Below are positions 1-35,544 of a DNA stretch of 42,353 bases, one piece after another. The notes below the pieces were generated by a model. It was not told where the DNA came from, searched no databases, and saw only the letters and a list, made by a program, of their open reading frames with translations. Every line of letters begins with the position of its first letter. Position 1 is the first letter of the stretch. The translations under genes were made by a program, and so were the position numbers. This stretch comes from a virus (lineage: Duplodnaviria > Heunggongvirae > Uroviricota > Caudoviricetes): the IMG/VR virus record IMGVR_UViG_2654587736_000008, one strand, 5' to 3'.

Positions 1-2
1 CA

Positions 3-48
3 CTGTTTATCCATACAGTTAAAAATAATACTGTATACAAACACAGTA
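3..48 (+). promoter_or_regulatory. Two tandem LexA (SOS) boxes upstream of the dinI-like gene
   Basis: CTGT-N8-ACAG at 3-18 (CTGTttatccatACAG) and a near-consensus TACTGTatacaaacACAGTA at 29-48, immediately upstream of the ATG at 62. Confidence 0.65.
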
Positions 49-61
49 TAGAGGGACTTTT

Positions 62-310
62 ATGCGTATTGAAATCTGTATAGCCAAAGAAAAAATGACT
101 AAAATGCCAACCGGTGCTGTGGATGCGTTAAAGGAAGAATTAACCCGACGCATCAGTAAACGTTATGACGATGTAGAGGTGATCGTAAAAGCCACCAGCA
201 ACGATGGCCTTTCTGTTACGCGCACCGCCGATAAAGATTCAGCTAAAACTTTTGTTCAGGAAACTCTGAAAGATACCTGGGAGTCTGCTGACGAGTGGTT
301 TGTTCACTAA
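62..310 (+). CDS. dinI: DinI-like DNA-damage-inducible protein (prophage-encoded homologue)
   Basis: 82-aa ORF; N-terminal MRIEI.IAK and C-terminal [15 protein letters not shown] match the DinI family pattern; SD GAGGGA upstream; SOS boxes upstream. Confidence 0.8.
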
Positions 311-378
311 TTAGCACGTAAAATCAGTAACGGCTGGAAATCATTCAATACTCGCACTATCGAAAGTTAACCAGCCAG

Positions 379-416
379 CCGCAGTATCCTATCATGACAA
401 GTTACTGCGGCTTTTT
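379..416 (+). terminator. Intrinsic terminator candidate downstream of dinI-like gene
   Basis: Stem CCGCAGTA(379-386)/TACTGCGG(403-410) followed by CTTTTT. Confidence 0.45.
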
Positions 417-483
417 ACTTTTTATATTTAACGGATCAACATCCAGATCAGCAGACACGCCACCACCGGCACAGCAAAATCCA

Positions 484-726: not shown

Positions 727-1005
727 TCAGCTCCATTCCCGAAGCGGTGTTTCCAGCTCCACGACATAATCAGAGAATACAGAAACATCAAACAAGTCAT
801 CAAGAATGCGAATGTTGACAAAATAACCGTCATTCCGGACACAGACAGGTTCTCCCTCTTCTGTTACCCCTGTTTCTGTGTAGGTGAAACCAATTTCATC
901 GACTAACAGTTTATTCTGGAGGTCTTCATCCTCCTCCCAGTCAAGAGATGACAGGAAGGCCTTAAACTGCAGTTTGTCATGAAACTTCAAAGTTAAATCT
1001 TTCAT
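727..1005 (-). CDS. Hypothetical acidic protein, possible tail-fibre assembly/chaperone partner (92 aa)
   Basis: ATG overlaps the stop of the tail-fibre ORF (ATGA); acidic composition; no recognisable Tfa motif. Confidence 0.45.
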   Translation of the reverse strand: MKDLTLKFHDKLQFKAFLSSLDWEEDEDLQNKLLVDEIGFTYTETGVTEEGEPVCVRNDGYFVNIRILDDLFDVSVFSDYVVELETPLREWS

Positions 1006-2330
1006 ACGACCTCTTTTAATTGCCTGTCATTTAATTCTTTATGCCATATGCGGAAATTGCGAATATGGCCAAACAGATGTCGTTCTCCAGTATTCGTCTG
1101 CCCTCCAAATCGGATATTTTTATCAGCGGTCACACCATTATATTCACAATAAACTTCATTAACCGCTTTACCATTTGTCACCACATGAAAGTGACCATCA
1201 GCTTTTGCAATACATCCAAATGTGGTTTTCTCTGCAAATACATCTGTCGCTGCGCTATTAACATACAAGCCTGAAGGGTTTGACAGACTCATATATAACT
1301 TACCACTACCTCTGTTGATTGCTGCAATTGCTGATTGCCCGGTATTGGCTGCTGCTATATCCCACACGCGGGGTGCGGCGTTTGGTGCAATATCCCAGTT
1401 TTTATGAATCTCAAGTAAAAAAGTAAATGGTAACTTATAAAGATTATTTCTGGTGGGGATACTAACCAAATCACTGGCTCTTGTCGTTGCGCTGCCTCCT
1501 GAAATAATAAATGATGATACACACGGCCCATTCTCTACTTGTGGGGTGGCAAGATAAATATAGTCACCAGATACTGTTGCCCCACCCTGCTCAGGAGAAT
1601 ACTGTATCTGAGAGCCTATTTTTAACTCACCATCAATTGCCTGAATCGTTGCCTCTGCAAAAATCCAGCCCGTGGTCTTATCCTTCCTGACTCGTGCCGT
1701 AATTCTGCCGGCAGCACCACCTGTCATATTAATTTCAAGCGTTTGCGTATCAATGTACGCATCGCCAAGAAAAGTTGTTGCACTACCATCATACTTATCA
1801 AACCGTATACGTAACCTTACCTGTCGTTCTGTTTTAAAACGGCATGAGGTTGTCACGTACTTGTTATCGCCTGAGACATCAACTGACTTTGTTGCAGCAA
1901 TTGATGCCATATTAATAGCCGAAGTTTGCCCAACCAGAGAATCGTTGCAGACAAACTTTCCATAAGTAAAACCAAAACTATCCGTCCCGGTTTCGGGCAC
2001 ATCCATGTTTGATGACTTCCCCCAGCTGGCTGGACTTTCCGAATTGAGCATGTAGTTCGTTCTTTGTCCCTCAATAAGCAGGCCATCACACTCAAATCGC
2101 GGCTCATTAATTTCCGCCGTTTTCAGTTCGCCAGATTTGTTGATATATGTTGCCGTTGATGCGCGACTGAAATTAACCTGTTTATCACTGGCGACCTGAA
2201 CCACATCGTCACCAATAGCTATTTTTTTATAGCCCGGAGAAAAACCCGCAATCATATCCAGTGAATCGTTAAACGGTATCCACACATCAGGCAGCGGCGG
2301 CACTATATTCGCATAGGGCTCTGCAGTCAC
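1002..2330 (-). CDS. Side tail fibre protein, C-terminal receptor-binding portion (frame separated from N-terminal part by a -1 frameshift)
   Basis: 442-aa ORF; the same frame is open upstream to about 2502 and encodes an Ala/Thr/Lys-rich continuation of the Stf-like shaft. Confidence 0.7.
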   Translation of the reverse strand: MTAEPYANIVPPLPDVWIPFNDSLDMIAGFSPGYKKIAIGDDVVQVASDKQVNFSRASTATYINKSGELKTAEINEPRFECDGLLIEGQRTNYMLNSESPASWGKSSNMDVPETGTDSFGFTYGKFVCNDSLVGQTSAINMASIAATKSVDVSGDNKYVTTSCRFKTERQVRLRIRFDKYDGSATTFLGDAYIDTQTLEINMTGGAAGRITARVRKDKTTGWIFAEATIQAIDGELKIGSQIQYSPEQGGATVSGDYIYLATPQVENGPCVSSFIISGGSATTRASDLVSIPTRNNLYKLPFTFLLEIHKNWDIAPNAAPRVWDIAAANTGQSAIAAINRGSGKLYMSLSNPSGLYVNSAATDVFAEKTTFGCIAKADGHFHVVTNGKAVNEVYCEYNGVTADKNIRFGGQTNTGERHLFGHIRNFRIWHKELNDRQLKEVV

Positions 2331-3061
2331 TTCCGCTGCGGCTTCTGCGCGGTCTGCCGCCTTTTCAGCTCGTGTCGCTGCCGACAGAGCCTCATCCTTT
2401 TTCTGCCCGGCCTTTGTTGCGTCTGCTGCAGCCTCCCGCGCTTTTGTGGTGGCGACTCCGGCATTTTCAGCGGCTGACTCTGCATTACGGCGGGAAGCTC
2501 TTCACTGTCTGCGGAGGCTTCTTCTGACGCACGGGCATTTGTCTCTGAACGTTCTGCCGCTGTTGCTGCGTTTTGTGCGGCTGTTTTTGAAGAAGCTGCC
2601 GCTTTCGCGCTGTTACCTGCATTCGTCTCTGATGTTTTCGCCGCGTTCCTGGACGATGCCGCTGCTGTTTCTGATTTCTTTGCTGCCGCTGCGCTCTGAG
2701 AGGCGGCTTCAGCGTTGCGTGCCACATCCTCCACCATTACCTCAAAACGACGCAATGCCTCCGGCATGACATCCTCTTCCGTCATGGCACCCAGAAAATC
2801 ATTCAGCGTCCCCGGCTTAGAATCCTCATACACGGTGATGGTCCCGGCATGTGAAGGCGGAAAACCTTCAACCAGCAGGATAACGCTGTACTGGCCATAC
2901 TCGACATCCATGCTGTAACGTCCGGCTTCATCCGGATTTTCTGAGGCCACCGTGTTCACCACCACCGTGCTGCTGGTCCGTCTGGCCTTCAGCACAATGG
3001 TGCAGTTCTGTACTGGTTTTCCTGTGCCATCTTTAAGCACGCCAGAAATTTTTACTGTCAT
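2327..3061 (-). CDS. stf: Side tail fibre protein, N-terminal portion (lambda Stf-like); reading frame breaks near 2495-2505
   Basis: N-terminus MTVKISGVLKDGTGKPVQNCTIVLKARR...GRYSMDVEYGQYSV closely resembles lambda Stf; the last ~60 residues of this ORF are basic low-complexity, consistent with out-of-frame translation. Confidence 0.7.
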   Translation of the reverse strand: MTVKISGVLKDGTGKPVQNCTIVLKARRTSSTVVVNTVASENPDEAGRYSMDVEYGQYSVILLVEGFPPSHAGTITVYEDSKPGTLNDFLGAMTEEDVMPEALRRFEVMVEDVARNAEAASQSAAAAKKSETAAASSRNAAKTSETNAGNSAKAAASSKTAAQNAATAAERSETNARASEEASADSEELPAVMQSQPLKMPESPPQKRGRLQQTQQRPGRKRMRLCRQRHELKRRQTAQKPQRK

Positions 3062-3212: not shown

Positions 3213-3812
3213 TCAGAAACGGTATCCGATACCAACAATAAATGCATCCGTTCGCCAGTCGCCACTACCGGAACCTTCATAAGCAAGGTCAATGGTCACG
3301 GATTCGGTCGGGTTAAACTGCACGCCAGCCCCCCACGCCAGAGACGTGTTGCTGTGGCGACCGTCATCACTTCCGGTCAGCACATCGTGCGTTTTCCCCT
3401 TGTTGTCAGTTACGCGGAGATAATCCCCGGAGAAAGTCGACACACGGCTGTAAGCCACACCCGCCATCGAATACGCGCTGAACCATTCATTCACGCGTAC
3501 AGACGGCCCCGCCATCACGCTGAACCAGCGGTTACGCACGGAATCTTCATGCCAGCGGGTATCGCTGTAGTGCGTTTTTTGCTCATCCTCAGCATTGGCA
3601 TAACTGAAGGACGTAATCAGCCCCAGCGCGTCCGTAAACTCATAACGGTATTTCACGTTAATCCCGTTCAGATTATCGCTGCCGGGAGCGTTCGTACGGG
3701 CATGAAGATACCCCGCGCTCAGTGTGGACTGATGTTCAGACGCCCATGCAGGCGCACCGGATACGGACAGACAGATGGCTGCGGACAAAATGACTGCACA
3801 AACTTTACGCAT
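3213..3812 (-). CDS. lom: Lom outer-membrane protein (Ail/Lom/PagC family)
   Basis: 199 aa; signal peptide then SEHQSTLSAGYLHA...GINVKYRYEF...GIGYRF, near-identical in pattern to lambda Lom. Confidence 0.9.
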   Translation of the reverse strand: MRKVCAVILSAAICLSVSGAPAWASEHQSTLSAGYLHARTNAPGSDNLNGINVKYRYEFTDALGLITSFSYANAEDEQKTHYSDTRWHEDSVRNRWFSVMAGPSVRVNEWFSAYSMAGVAYSRVSTFSGDYLRVTDNKGKTHDVLTGSDDGRHSNTSLAWGAGVQFNPTESVTIDLAYEGSGSGDWRTDAFIVGIGYRF

Positions 3813-25494: not shown

Positions 25495-26547
25495 TTATTT
25501 CCCCACCAGCTCGTTTATCTCTTTCACTGTCTGGTTAAACCGCTCTGACTCAAGCTCAACACCTAAGGCCCGACGCCCCAGCGCCATTGCTGCTTTTATT
25601 GTGGAACCGGATCCCATAAAAAAATCAGCAACCAGATCACCTGGTCGACTACTGGCATTGATTATTTGCCTGAGCATATCCGCCGGTTTCTCACACGGAT
25701 GTTTCCCCGGGTAGAACTGAACGGGTTTATGCATCCAGACATCGGTATAAGGCACGGAGACTGATACGGAGAAATAGCGCCGGAGAGATTTAAACTCATC
25801 CAGCAATTCAGAATATTTGCGATTCAGTGAATCATAAGATGCCACCAGCTGGTGGTGTGGTTGTTCCAGTTGTTGTTCCTGAAACTTCTCTGCCGCTATA
25901 CGGGAAAACAGTGCCTGTAACTTCCGATAGTCAGCCTCATTCGGCAACTGCCACTGACTGGCACCAAACCAGTGGGAAACCATATTTTTCTTACCTGTGG
26001 CTTCGGCAATTTGTTTTGCCGTTATACCCAGTTCGGCACGAGCATCCCTGAAATACGAAATCAGCGGTGCCATTATGTGCTGTTTGAGTTCCCTTTCTTT
26101 TGCCGCATAGCCGTCACTTTTGCCGCGATATGGCCCCTGGTAATGTTCAGCAAACAGAACGCGCTCTGTGGCAGGAAAATATGCACGCAGACTTTCTTTA
26201 TTACACCCATTCCAACGTCCGGACGGCTTCGCCCAGATGATATGGTTAAGCACGTTGAAACGTTCACGCATCATGATCTCAATATCAGATGCCAGGCGAT
26301 GCCCACAGAACAGGTAAAGGCTTCCGGCAGGTTTTAACACCCGCCAGAACTGGGCCAGACAGTGGTCCAGCCACTTAAGGTAATCTTCGTCCCCTTTCCA
26401 CTGATTGTCCCAGCCGTTGGGTTTCACCTTGAAGTACGGCGGATCGGTAACAATCAGGTCAATGGAATCATCAGGCAGGGACTGAATAAAATGCAGGCAA
26501 TCAGCGTTGATTAAATCAACACTGTTTATTTTTACAGTATTTTTCAT
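25495..26547 (-). CDS. DNA N6-adenine methyltransferase, beta-class (DPPY before FxGxG), orphan
   Basis: 350 aa; motif IV VTDPPYF near the N-terminus and SAM-binding DFFMGSGST near the C-terminus; no adjacent restriction gene. Confidence 0.8.
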
Positions 26548-26697
26548 GGATCAGTAAGCGTAACTCTGGTAGGCTCACTCTGCTTTTGCGCTAAAGCAGT
26601 GGGCCGTGGTTCGCTTGTGACCAGTAAGCATGAGCGAATGGCTGGCAGGTGCTACCAACACCCACCAGCCGCCCATTTTCACAGCAGGAAACCGCCA

Positions 26698-28086: not shown

Positions 28087-29082
28087 TCAGGCCAGCACGC
28101 CAATTGCCAGCGCACGATCGATAAAACGAAATATCAGCTCCAGTTGGGAGCCATACTTCTCTTCAAATGCCACGGTATCCGCATGCAGCTCGTCGTGATG
28201 CTTTCTGCACAAAGGCAACACAAAAAGGTCATGCGCTTTTGTTCCCATTCCACCCTGACCGTGACCTATCAGGTGGTGGGGATCATCAGCAGGCTTTCCA
28301 CAACATGCACACGGCTGTGTCTTAACCCAGCGCGTGTACTTTTCATTAACCCAGCGGCGACGTTTTGGGCGTAACATAAAAGACTCCGGCGACTCTGGAT
28401 CCACTTTCAGCGCCAGCACCTTTTTCGCTTTATCCTGGATGATGCTGGTGGCAGGAACCGAAGGCACAAGGTCACTTTCCCGGGTGACAGACGGCACAAC
28501 AGGCTTCGGTAATCTCAGTGCCTTACGGGCTGCACTTTCCGGTAAGGCATCCGCCAGGTCATTACGAATCAGCCACCAGCACAGTTCCGGCATTGTCACA
28601 ACGTGACTGTCATCAAAACCGAGATCCCGACGCACAACAGACAACACCCAGCGGGTACAGTTATCCGTTGCCATTGATTCCAGCCGTTCCGTGAACTGAT
28701 CGCGCAGCTGGTTATCGCAGTGCCAGCACAGACGGATTGCGCCCGGCGTGTGTCGCATTGTGGTCATGTTCTCGCTGTGCCAGTCGGAATGAGGCCACTG
28801 GCAACCTTTTTCACGAAGTAACCAGCGTTCAAGACATTCCACTCCACCAGCACGACGGATCACTGCCTCATTGCGGAACACGGCCCGAACGGCAGGATCA
28901 TCCGCCAGCGGTTGTGATGCCGCCGGAACGGCACCACTGGCGAAAGATGAATAACGTTCCGGCTCAGGCTCCAGCAGAACACGCCCCTGCATAAACAGGG
29001 GCATCAGCTCTGAACCTGGCCTGAACAATACGATCCCCATACGCGGGGCAATTTCAGGGGTCAGTAGTGCTCTCACGGTCAC
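28087..29082 (-). CDS. DUF968 family protein (HNH-like Cys/His C-terminal motif)
   Basis: 331 aa; C-terminal [21 protein letters not shown]...CRKHHDELH; start uncertain (GTG 29082 or downstream ATG). Confidence 0.65.
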
Positions 29083-29912: not shown

Positions 29913-30302
29913 TCAGGCGGCTGCACCCGCCGTTTTCTCGTACTTACTGATGGTGATCTCGACCTTCCCTTTCGGGATAACCGGTCCCCACTCCACCAGC
30001 ATTCTTTTCACCTGTCTGTCGTCTTCCCACACACCCGCGTGGGTCAACGCGTCAAACAGCGCCTTGTTATAGTTGTCCAGATCGCGGATCCGGTTATCCG
30101 GAGGAAACAACACGATCTCCACTGCAGCAGGTGCCGACGTTGGTTTTGGCAGACGACGTAACTGCTCAACTATTGCTGCGCACGCCGCGCTCTGAAATTT
30201 TCGCCCCGCCGCGCTTATCAGGCTCTTACCAGCAAATGCCCCTTTGTTGGGGTGTCGCCAGTACGTGTTCACGCTGGGCGGGAAAGGCAGGATCAGCTTC
30301 AT
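29913..30302 (-). CDS. rusA: Holliday junction resolvase RusA
   Basis: 129 aa; LPFPPSVNTYWRH...RDLDNYNKALFDALTHAGVWEDD; ATG overlaps upstream stop (ATGA). Confidence 0.85.
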   Translation of the reverse strand: MKLILPFPPSVNTYWRHPNKGAFAGKSLISAAGRKFQSAACAAIVEQLRRLPKPTSAPAAVEIVLFPPDNRIRDLDNYNKALFDALTHAGVWEDDRQVKRMLVEWGPVIPKGKVEITISKYEKTAGAAA

Positions 30303-30625
30303 ACTTTCAGGCCTCTCTCATGTAACCAGTGGGTTGCACGCAGCCTGGCGTTTTCCTCACCGGCAAGCAGTGAGCGGATAATCCCGACCGCCTCGCTGTC
30401 GTCGTCCTTCACCGCGGTATGAAGAGTGATACCCCGGGCCACGCCACGCTTTATCGTGATGACGCCTTTTTTCTCCAGTGCGCGAAGATGTTCCACCGCT
30501 GCATTCACTGAACGGTATCCCAGCATGGTTGCCACCTCCTGATTGGTTGGCGGGAAGCCACGTTCTTTCTGATAAGAAATCAGCATATCCAGCACCTGCT
30601 GCTGGCATTGAGTTAACGTCGTCAT
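30299..30625 (-). CDS. LexA-type N-terminal DNA-binding-domain protein (no peptidase domain)
   Basis: 108 aa; LTQCQQQVLDMLISYQKERGFPPTNQEVATMLGYRSVNAAVEHLRALEKKGVI resembles the LexA wHTH; ATGA overlap with the upstream gene. Confidence 0.55.
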   Translation of the reverse strand: MTTLTQCQQQVLDMLISYQKERGFPPTNQEVATMLGYRSVNAAVEHLRALEKKGVITIKRGVARGITLHTAVKDDDSEAVGIIRSLLAGEENARLRATHWLHERGLKV

Positions 30626-32805: not shown

Positions 32806-33953
32806 TTGCGCCCCCTTACCTCTGAAGGGTTCAGCGACAAATTTATGAGGCAGGCCAGTGCCGAAGCATCATTAATATAGTCATACAAGCTAACAGCCAG
32901 CGGAGATTCGGCTTTTGCCAACATAGGATAAAGCTGCTGCAGCCAGACCTGATGAATTGATGAAATGTAGGAATAGAGAACGCTGGCGTTATGTGCAACG
33001 TCGCTCAGTACAGAGGGATTTGAAAGCTGTTTCTCCATCTGGTTAAAGGCATTGATGTATGCCTCTTTGAACTGGGCAGCACGTTTACCCGTGAAACCCA
33101 TAGCAAGAAACGCAAAGCCGTCGCGGGTTATTTGATAGCAAGGTAGTTTGCGGCCTGTGCAATCGGTGTAATCACTCGCCGAAAAATTGCGGGAAGTGAA
33201 TGATGCAGAGCATTCAAGCGTGCGGATCTTTTTCAGTACATCGTCATGACGTTTGGAGAAGAAGTTGGCAACAGCCAGGGATGAAGTAACAGCCTGACCA
33301 TCAACGATGGCAATTTCAGGTTGAGTGAGGGTTGGGATCGTAGCCATGATGGCAGCCTCTTTGGTGATTTTTAATAACTCACCACCAAGGCTTTCCACGA
33401 CCTTATTGGTGGTGAGACGTACAGGGGTGGAAATACCGGTCACCAAAGAACCCGGCCCAACCGAAGTTGGCCCTGCACGCCCCACCATAATTTGGGCGTA
33501 ATGCTGCTCATTACACAAAAAAACCGCAAGAGCGCGGTTGTGCGCTTTGGTGAATTCCGAGTTTCCACGCCCGGCACCCGCTTTATAAGGTGCCTGAACA
33601 GTGTAACGTCCCGGAATGGCAGAATCAATGTGCTGGTGGTCCTTCACACTCAACAAAATCACGCCTGAATTTCCACAAAGGACTAAAGCACTCATGCGGG
33701 TAGTCTTTGCGAAGATAGATAACGCGCTGTGTTTCTGGCTCCCAACGAATAACATGGACATAAAGCCCTCTTCCGTCACGAAACCAGCGGTTAAGTTCCT
33801 GCACAACTCGCCCCCCACAGTCAGGTAAAGTTCTCTGTGGTTACTTACAGCCAAGTGATTTGGTAATCTGCATTCATGCCGTAACAACAGGTGTTCAGCG
33901 ACACTGACCACCAGCTGTTGCGACAAACGGTTATTTGCCGTTAAACTGTTCAT
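32802..33953 (-). CDS. Rha-family phage regulatory protein with a ~200-aa N-terminal extension (alternative start ATG 33348)
   Basis: pRha domain (IAIVDGQAVTSSLAVANFFSKRHDDVLKKIRTL...YQITRDGFAFLAMGFTGKRAAQFKEAYINAFNQMEKQL) in the C-terminal half; the ORF is open to ATG 33953, which overlaps the upstream stop (ATGA). Confidence 0.6.
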   Translation of the reverse strand: MNSLTANNRLSQQLVVSVAEHLLLRHECRLPNHLAVSNHRELYLTVGGELCRNLTAGFVTEEGFMSMLFVGSQKHSALSIFAKTTRMSALVLCGNSGVILLSVKDHQHIDSAIPGRYTVQAPYKAGAGRGNSEFTKAHNRALAVFLCNEQHYAQIMVGRAGPTSVGPGSLVTGISTPVRLTTNKVVESLGGELLKITKEAAIMATIPTLTQPEIAIVDGQAVTSSLAVANFFSKRHDDVLKKIRTLECSASFTSRNFSASDYTDCTGRKLPCYQITRDGFAFLAMGFTGKRAAQFKEAYINAFNQMEKQLSNPSVLSDVAHNASVLYSYISSIHQVWLQQLYPMLAKAESPLAVSLYDYINDASALACLINLSLNPSEVRGRK

Positions 33954-34851: not shown

Positions 34852-35544
34852 ATGAACATAGGAAATCGAGTCAGACAACTTCGCCAGGCGAAGAACATGA
34901 AAATCGCCGATCTCGCTGAAGCAATAGGAGTGGATGCGGCGAATATCTCGCGCCTCGAAACAGGTAAGCAGAAACAATTCACTGAACAAGCCCTGAGTAA
35001 TATTGCCAGGAGCTTAGGTGTTGATATTGCTGATCTCTTTACCTCAGACCTCAAAAGTAATACTGTATGTAAAAACAGTATTAGTGAGGATGTTGCGCAG
35101 GTGAAGGATGTATTCCGTATTGAAATGCTGGATGTCAGTGCCAGTGCGGGAAATGGCCTTATCCAGGGCGGTGATGTCATTGATGTGATTCATGCCATTG
35201 AATACAGAACTGATAATGCTGTATCGATGTTTGGTGGACGACCAGCAAATCACATTAAAGTTATCAACGTTCGTGGGGACAGTATGTGTCCAACCATTGA
35301 GCCAGGAGATCTCATCTTCGTTGATATCAGTATCAATCAGTTTGATGGGGATGGTATATATGTATTTGGTTTTGATGATAAAATTTACGTCAAACGACTG
35401 CAAATGATACCTGATAAACTGCTGGTAATTTCTGATAATCAGATTTACCGCGAATGGGGAATTACCAGCGAAAACGAACACCGGTTTATGGTCTTTGGAA
35501 AGGTCTTAATCAGTCAGTCACAAACCCTTAAGCGACACAATTAA
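34852..35544 (+). CDS. cI: CI-type prophage repressor (HTH plus S24 LexA-like peptidase domain)
   Basis: 230 aa; N-terminal HTH; Ala-Gly (SASAGNG) candidate cleavage site; S24 Ser in GDSM and Lys in VKRL. Confidence 0.85.
   Translation: MNIGNRVRQLRQAKNMKIADLAEAIGVDAANISRLETGKQKQFTEQALSNIARSLGVDIADLFTSDLKSNTVCKNSISEDVAQVKDVFRIEMLDVSASAGNGLIQGGDVIDVIHAIEYRTDNAVSMFGGRPANHIKVINVRGDSMCPTIEPGDLIFVDISINQFDGDGIYVFGFDDKIYVKRLQMIPDKLLVISDNQIYREWGITSENEHRFMVFGKVLISQSQTLKRHN

Follow-up and report, generated by a model that had tools for sequence, protein, structure and literature searches.

A dinI-like prophage moron with two LexA boxes on its predicted promoter, and a conserved LexA box within the cI gene of the same prophage

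The DNA analyzed here, a 42,353-nucleotide stretch of a tailed phage genome that we call the window, opens with a small gene resembling dinI that stands behind two LexA boxes, and it encodes an S24-type CI repressor elsewhere. This arrangement raises the question of whether the phage gene belongs to the SOS response of the host and, if it does, whether its product would serve to adjust the cleavage of the phage's own repressor or would act on RecA more generally. The first 60 nucleotides of the window read cactgtttatccatacagttaaaaataatactgtatacaaacacagtatagagggactttt, and the ATG of the dinI-like open reading frame is at position 62. To score LexA sites, we applied a Lewis-type heterology index (HI) to every 20-mer, using a matrix of 28 E. 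coli LexA sites. The absolute HI values are approximate for this matrix, which is of little consequence because the sites lie near the consensus. The cassette has the following parts:

-3 to 2 (1-2 inside the window), + strand: predicted -35 hexamer TTGACA, a perfect match, at 5997-6002 of L001
1-20 (core 3-18), + strand: LexA box 1, CACTGTTTATCCATACAGTT, HI 4.75, located in the promoter spacer
20-26, + strand: predicted -10 element, either TAAAAA (20-25; spacer of 17 nt) or AAAAAT (21-26; spacer of 18 nt), assigned by consensus match only
29-48 (core 31-46), + strand: LexA box 2, TACTGTATACAAACACAGTA, HI 3.25, over the predicted transcription start
52-56, + strand: Shine-Dalgarno sequence GAGGG, 5 nt ahead of the ATG, read from the sequence
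62-310, + strand: DinI-like coding sequence, 82 aa, assigned from Pfam, a PDB sequence match, an AF2 model and kept contact residues
311-376, + strand: conserved 3' UTR of 66 nt, with a small hairpin (332-337/371-376)
377-423, + strand: predicted intrinsic terminator, with a 10-bp stem (377-386/403-412), a 16-nt loop and a T-run at 412-423, TTTTTACTTTTT

The identity of the protein is supported by several comparisons. It matches the Pfam DinI profile (PF06183) over 63 of 63 positions, scoring 70.9 bits where the cut-off is 24.2 (E = 1e-19), and its sequence match in the PDB is 1ghh/7ywa (E = 4e-13). These same two entries were the only PDB matches at E ≤ 0.001 when we searched with a single-sequence AF2 model of the protein (pLDDT 77; TM 0.64-0.68). 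Cryo-EM of RecA bound by E. coli DinI places L13, L21, W71, W77 and F78 of a hydrophobic pocket, together with the acidic residues E24, E69 and D76, in contact with RecA (PMC9926225). Their aligned counterparts in the phage protein are M15, L23, W73, W79, F80, E26, D71 and E78; five of the eight are identical, and the other three (M15, D71 and E78) are conservative replacements. The first-pass annotation of this DNA had named the gene a DinI homologue, and profile, PDB match, fold model and contact residues all agree with it.

We then considered the operators. The window contains the pattern CTGT-N8-ACAG six times, where 0.57 occurrences would be expected; none of 100 shuffled sequences reached six. 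An HI of 9 or less was found at only four positions in the 42 kb (1-20, 29-48, 26520-26539 and 35061-35080), compared with a shuffle mean of 0.1. Further matches to the pattern at 33835 and 39600 have HI values of 12-17 and poor flanks, and we set them aside as chance. The two tandem boxes that had been reported ahead of the dinI-like gene are both present as CTGT-N8-ACAG (3-18 and 31-46), near consensus and on the predicted promoter.

This promoter is split by the start of the window. The first four bases of the TTGACA hexamer lie upstream of it, and the TGA within them is the stop codon of the integrase gene, int. With the upstream bases added, a promoter scan returned TTGACA-18-AAAAAT (10/12), and this promoter is also annotated in the GenBank record of phage mEp460. 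The -10 element is weak. Both LexA boxes overlap this predicted sigma-70 promoter, as box 1 occupies the spacer and box 2 would span about +1 to +16. In 23 distinct promoter variants, which represent 62 loci, the core bases of both boxes (16 in all) are invariant with one exception, and 28 of the 50 other columns vary. The sole core change is in box 2 of one frameshifted pseudogene copy, and the core of box 1 is the same in all 23 variants. Operators of low HI, their overlap with a promoter and their conservation among homologous loci are the sequence features by which the dinI-like promoter is assigned here to the LexA (SOS) regulon.

At its other end, the transcription unit appears to be closed by the hairpin at 377-423. 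The fold is significant (z = -3.2) and is retained across nine downstream variants, with compensatory double changes in four pairs; the T-run behind it is absent in about half of the variants. A simple terminator scan found no terminator for the dinI-like gene because the loop, at 16 nt, is long. The gene had been described as followed by its own terminator, and fold and covariation bear out the hairpin. No + strand open reading frame of at least 20 aa lies between the stop codon of the dinI-like gene and the hairpin (311-393), and the unit is therefore monocistronic. An antirepressor gene of the kind found downstream of dinI in the Gifsy prophages was looked for at this place, and none was found. 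A search of positions 1-1200 against Rfam at a permissive threshold gave no match for a small RNA in the 3' UTR. RefSeq places a "capsid protein" pseudogene fragment on the - strand at window positions 307-387 in NZ_CP043181, over the dinI 3' UTR, which is probably an annotation artefact. The interval first proposed for the cassette, 1-483, holds every element where it had been placed, but it is too long: by position 483 it has entered a convergent - strand gene.

The first position of the window is one base past the stop codon of int, which encodes a tyrosine integrase of 366 aa. A prophage that is 99.9% identical and inserted at dusA (NZ_CP043181) has the gene order dusA, int (+), dinI-like (+) and tail-fibre genes (-), and 47 of the 50 close relatives in IMG/VR have the same int ahead of the cassette. 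A start this near the int stop codon cuts the -35 hexamer and omits int, so the true end of the prophage lies at dusA, about 1.2 kb beyond. Several other IMG/VR provirus predictions (L005, L007, L014 and others) begin, as the window does, 60-61 bases upstream of the dinI ATG. The earlier placement of the gene at the prophage end consequently needs one amendment: here it is second from the end, with int intervening before the att site at dusA. In the prophages that we sampled at sites other than dusA, it is indeed the outermost gene beside the att site (prfC, ssrA, tRNA-Pro or yecD).

Comparing copies of the cassette in different surroundings defined its boundaries. In seven contexts (the 3' end of int, prfC, ssrA twice, tRNA-Pro, yecD and an IS1 insertion), the copies begin to match exactly at the -35 hexamer and share no related sequence upstream of it. 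The right boundary is the hairpin, and some phages (H37-H39) share positions 318-716 without dinI. The cassette has a GC content of 41%, and its gene is convergent with the tail-fibre operon. With its own predicted promoter and terminator, its sharp boundaries and its presence or absence among related phages, it is built like a textbook, self-contained moron. Phage Flotzy has, at this position of its genome between tail fibre and int, a DinI gene and a divergent UmuD-like gene (L125, 28155-29369) with LexA boxes at 28479 and 29287, which suggests that this site collects SOS-related morons. The neighboring region of the window also differs from NZ_CP043181 by two one-base deletions. One, near 530 (GG to G), shifts the frame of a 95-aa hypothetical gene (428-715, - strand); the other, near 2497 (CC to C), affects the gene for the side tail fibre, one open reading frame in NZ_CP043181 and two in the window (1002-2330 and 2327-3061). 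Both are either decay or homopolymer sequencing errors.

In design, the cassette is much like the dinI gene of E. coli K-12 (b1061). Each encodes a single domain of about 81 aa with the same fold and RecA-contact residues, and each is monocistronic, LexA-repressed (a prediction in the case of the window copy) and equipped with its own terminator. The two differ in sequence, with 46% identity between the proteins, and in their promoters and flanks, which are unrelated; the K-12 gene has one canonical box, whereas the window copy has two strong ones. Unlike K-12 dinI, the window-type cassette is mobile and reaches up to seven copies per genome. The phage protein scores 73 bits against the NCBIfam equivalog model for chromosomal dinI (NF007893), under its cut-off of 111 bits, and the flanks do not resemble the pyrC-dinI-bssS locus. 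On these grounds, we class the gene as a paralogue, rather than an orthologue, of chromosomal dinI. Recent capture of the host gene is ruled out by the 46% identity and the unrelated promoter and flanks.

The cassette is widespread. Its 310 bp were found at 3,399 places in 1,806 of 5,426 complete E. coli genomes, where the gene is annotated as "DinI-like family protein". It is also present, annotated as DinI or DinI-like, in mEp460 (gp21), cdtI, VT1-Sakai (H0001), BP-4795 (dinI) and dozens of Stx phages, and these four and many Stx phages are 96-100% identical to the window copy in DNA or protein. Positions 1-720 of the window are 99.9% identical to phage mEp460_4F5. Neither the mEp460 record nor that of mEp460_4F5 annotates the two LexA boxes. 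The cassette accompanies many immunity types, and it is found in decayed prophages and beside effector genes. Compared with the window, coding copies show at most 13 synonymous and 0-1.5 nonsynonymous substitutions, a contrast that is inflated, the low dN being due in part to our choice of loci by protein similarity. Among the more divergent copies sampled, three of five are pseudogenes.

Taken together, these observations make it likely that the cassette is a monocistronic moron in which two operators for host LexA sit on a sigma-70 promoter and control a protein of the DinI family. In an undamaged lysogen, LexA would keep this promoter shut. DNA damage would activate RecA and lead to the self-cleavage of LexA, releasing a transcript of about 380 nt that would end at the hairpin, and during SOS the phage copy would raise the amount of DinI in the cell. 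This would be expected to modulate RecA* in general, with stabilization of its filaments; at a higher dose, DinI might compete with substrates that are cleaved slowly, such as UmuD and CI-type repressors.

The first-pass annotation had gone further, proposing a feedback loop in which the phage copy tunes the RecA*-dependent cleavage of its own S24-type CI, such that deleting the gene would measurably alter spontaneous or induced prophage induction. The repressor that this model calls for is in the same prophage, complete with its cleavage-site and catalytic motifs:

34852-35544, + strand: CI repressor, HTH and Peptidase_S24 domains, with Ala-Gly site, GDSM serine and VKRL lysine

It has the canonical form of a cleavable HTH-S24 repressor. 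Moreover, DinI and lambda CI share a docking site on RecA, formed by the L2 loop and a basic patch, and the contact residues are kept in the phage protein. It is structurally plausible that extra DinI could influence CI cleavage. However, the cassette resides in prophages of many immunity types, in decayed prophages and in effector islands, and the host already has an SOS-induced dinI of its own. The sign of the effect is also unpredictable, since DinI stabilizes RecA filaments yet can compete for the groove.

A further argument against such a loop comes from the Salmonella prophages Gifsy-1, -2 and -3, which, like the window prophage, carry a DinI paralogue preceded by a LexA box (Lemire et al. 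2011, PMC3121763). Treatment with mitomycin C or nalidixic acid switches these homologues on, and replacing the box abolishes that control (PMC3121763, PMC8072944); their boxes, with HI values of 3.9-5.3, belong to genes for which induction by nalidixic acid is on record (PMC8072944). The Gifsy genes occur beside non-cleavable repressors, and their deletion had no induction phenotype (PMC3121763). The two systems differ in several respects. Gifsy dinI is the first cistron of an operon with an antirepressor (dinI-gfoA/gftA-irsA) and the window copy stands alone; the former lies downstream of replication genes behind one box, whereas the window-type copy lies between int/att and the tail-fibre genes behind two; and the resident repressor is non-cleavable in Gifsy and of the cleavable type here. 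We regard a loop dedicated to the phage's own CI as rather unlikely. We favor an accessory gene that modulates RecA* in general because the effect on CI cleavage could go either way, the cassette is independent of repressor type and survives in decayed prophages, and the host contributes an SOS-induced dinI of its own.

A different possibility concerns the protein that reads the boxes. The nin region, between dam and rusA, encodes a second LexA-related product:

30299-30625, - strand: LexA DNA-binding-domain-only protein, 108 aa (PF01726, E = 3e-19; PDB LexA N-terminal domain, E = 7e-16; phrog_362)

The protein is without an S24 domain and occurs in 61 phage records, among them SfII, SfV and Stx2c phages. 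It is possibly an uncleavable LexA mimic, which could bind the dinI boxes in addition to LexA, or in its place for the most part, and silence dinI and host SOS genes again after induction, when host LexA has disappeared. In keeping with such a role, it corresponds to the LexA N-terminal domain and keeps S39, N41, A42 and E45 of the recognition helix, which we take to be the residues of LexA that contact bases in its complex with DNA. From the position of the gene in the nin region, expression would be expected after derepression. Nevertheless, the protein is without the dimerizing C-terminal domain of LexA, which leaves its affinity in doubt; the dinI cassette is widespread among prophages; and the box in cI, described below, is present in phages without this gene, such as ST64B. 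We think it quite improbable that the phage protein reads the dinI boxes, whether alongside LexA or as their main ligand. In the literature we searched, we found nothing relevant on this nin gene.

It is very improbable that the cassette is part of an antirepressor system, of the type of 186 Tum or Gifsy dinI-gfoA/gftA-irsA, that targets the repressor of its own or another prophage. The window copy does share a DinI-like module and (here predicted) LexA control with Tum of coliphage 186 and with the split tum of Fels-2/PSP3, and this combination is common to the antirepressor systems (PMC3121763). It also matches phrog_189 (E = 6e-31), a family that includes longer, Tum-like proteins. The match, however, is restricted to profile positions 71-149, the C-terminal half of the family, and the N-terminal antirepressor half is missing. 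Whereas the DinI-like half of Tum is fused or adjacent to an antirepressor, the window copy has neither such a domain nor such a neighbor, there being no downstream open reading frame before the terminator. Furthermore, CI is of the cleavable type here, so an antirepressor would be unneeded. Finally, it is hardly credible that the cassette is hitch-hiking DNA without a current function and its boxes relics: several copies are pseudogenes and the Gifsy dinI deletions have no known phenotype (PMC3121763), but protein and operator cores are under strong purifying selection, the hairpin has been kept up by compensatory changes, and the cassette is kept in a third of E. coli genomes.

The dinI-like promoter accounts for two of the four low-HI sites in the window. 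The best site of all lies within the gene for the repressor:

35061-35080, no strand assigned: near-consensus LexA box in the cI linker, TACTGTATGTAAAAACAGTA, HI 2.56

This box falls within the codons for the linker that joins the HTH and S24 domains. The cI genes of SfII, ST64B, Flotzy and a Klebsiella phage retain it at nucleotide identities as low as 69%, and its flanks diverge. We found it in 20 of 24 genomic cI homologues, at exactly nucleotide 210 (207 in Proteus) and with HI values of 0.6-6.5, in 12 or more enterobacterial genera; the homologues come from Shigella, Citrobacter, Kluyvera, Pseudescherichia, Klebsiella, Buttiauxella, Trabulsiella, Pantoea, Mixta, Rosenbergiella, Proteus, Serratia and others. 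It is the sole site of this kind within up to 1.5 kb on either side of cI in those 20 loci, barring one weak site (HI 8.1, L104), and a search over that range for a partner LexA site beside the cI homologues found none. In an alignment of 21 box-bearing sequences, the box provides the only invariant bases of a hypervariable linker; its Thr codon is always ACT and its Ser codon always AGT, and the surrounding amino acids vary. Invariant codons amid varying amino acids show a constraint on the cI box at the level of DNA.

The whole genomes of ST64B and SfII contain no strong LexA site other than this box, and host LexA is its likely ligand because ST64B is without both DinI and the phage LexA-DBD gene. 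The cI allele with the box is present in Stx2 phages as well. Around the box, there is no consensus match to a promoter on either strand, the 21 homologues have no conserved -35-like element, and no conserved in-frame restart codon follows downstream. Our leading guesses are that bound LexA would act as a roadblock on the cI (PRM) transcript, or that the box is the operator of an unrecognized SOS-controlled transcript. Tentatively, and with more doubt than conviction, we suggest that the phage may bring a LexA regulon of its own, with the dinI promoter as only one node and with the cI box, a further box in a methylase gene (described below) and the LexA-DBD protein as other parts. If LexA occupancy of cI modulates repressor synthesis, LexA (cleaved fast), DinI (competing for the RecA groove) and CI (cleaved slowly) would form a layered induction timer.

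The fourth low-HI site lies in the late region, at the start of a methylase gene:

25495-26547, - strand: N6/N4 DNA methylase gene, with a LexA-like box at its 5' end
26520-26539, no strand assigned: LexA-like box over codons 3-9 of the methylase gene, CACTGTTTATTTTTACAGTA, HI 4.42

Citrobacter, Providencia and Stx phages share this box, which we find in phiNP, Stx2a_WGPS2, a Providencia phage and Flotzy. The N-terminus of the methylase is conserved too, so selection on the box at the DNA level is not separable from selection on the protein. Upstream of the methylase gene, at about 26600-26690 (- strand), is a strongly conserved non-coding hairpin element, AAATGGGCGGCTGGTGGGTGTTGG...CCAGCCAT. 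Long stretches of it are invariant in four of four aligned sequences, out to the Providencia phage, and it has no Rfam match at the gathering threshold.

Rfam did identify two RNAs on the - strand of the segment 32802-33593, isrK at 33517-33593 and C4 antisense RNA at 33405-33492. They lie directly upstream of an open reading frame with Ash and Rha domains that starts near 33346. We read the segment, which is located between cII and the replication genes, as an antirepressor-type module like those of P1 and Gifsy-1.

As a gene, the dinI-like cassette is ordinary, common and already annotated as DinI in phage and genome records, and LexA-type control of such genes has already been shown in Salmonella prophages. 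Its two-operator promoter and the exact boundaries of the moron have apparently not been written down before, and in the literature we searched we found nothing on the function, expression or LexA binding of the E. coli prophage cassette. The LexA box inside cI is of more interest. Our search, which included the lambdoid phages, turned up no report of a LexA box within cI.

Up to seven DinI copies per E. coli strain, all predicted to be SOS-inducible, could shift RecA* activity and SOS mutagenesis, and they could shift the induction thresholds of all resident prophages, Stx phages included. If the reading of the cI box is true, a LexA operator conserved inside cI would put a CI-type repressor within direct reach of host LexA.
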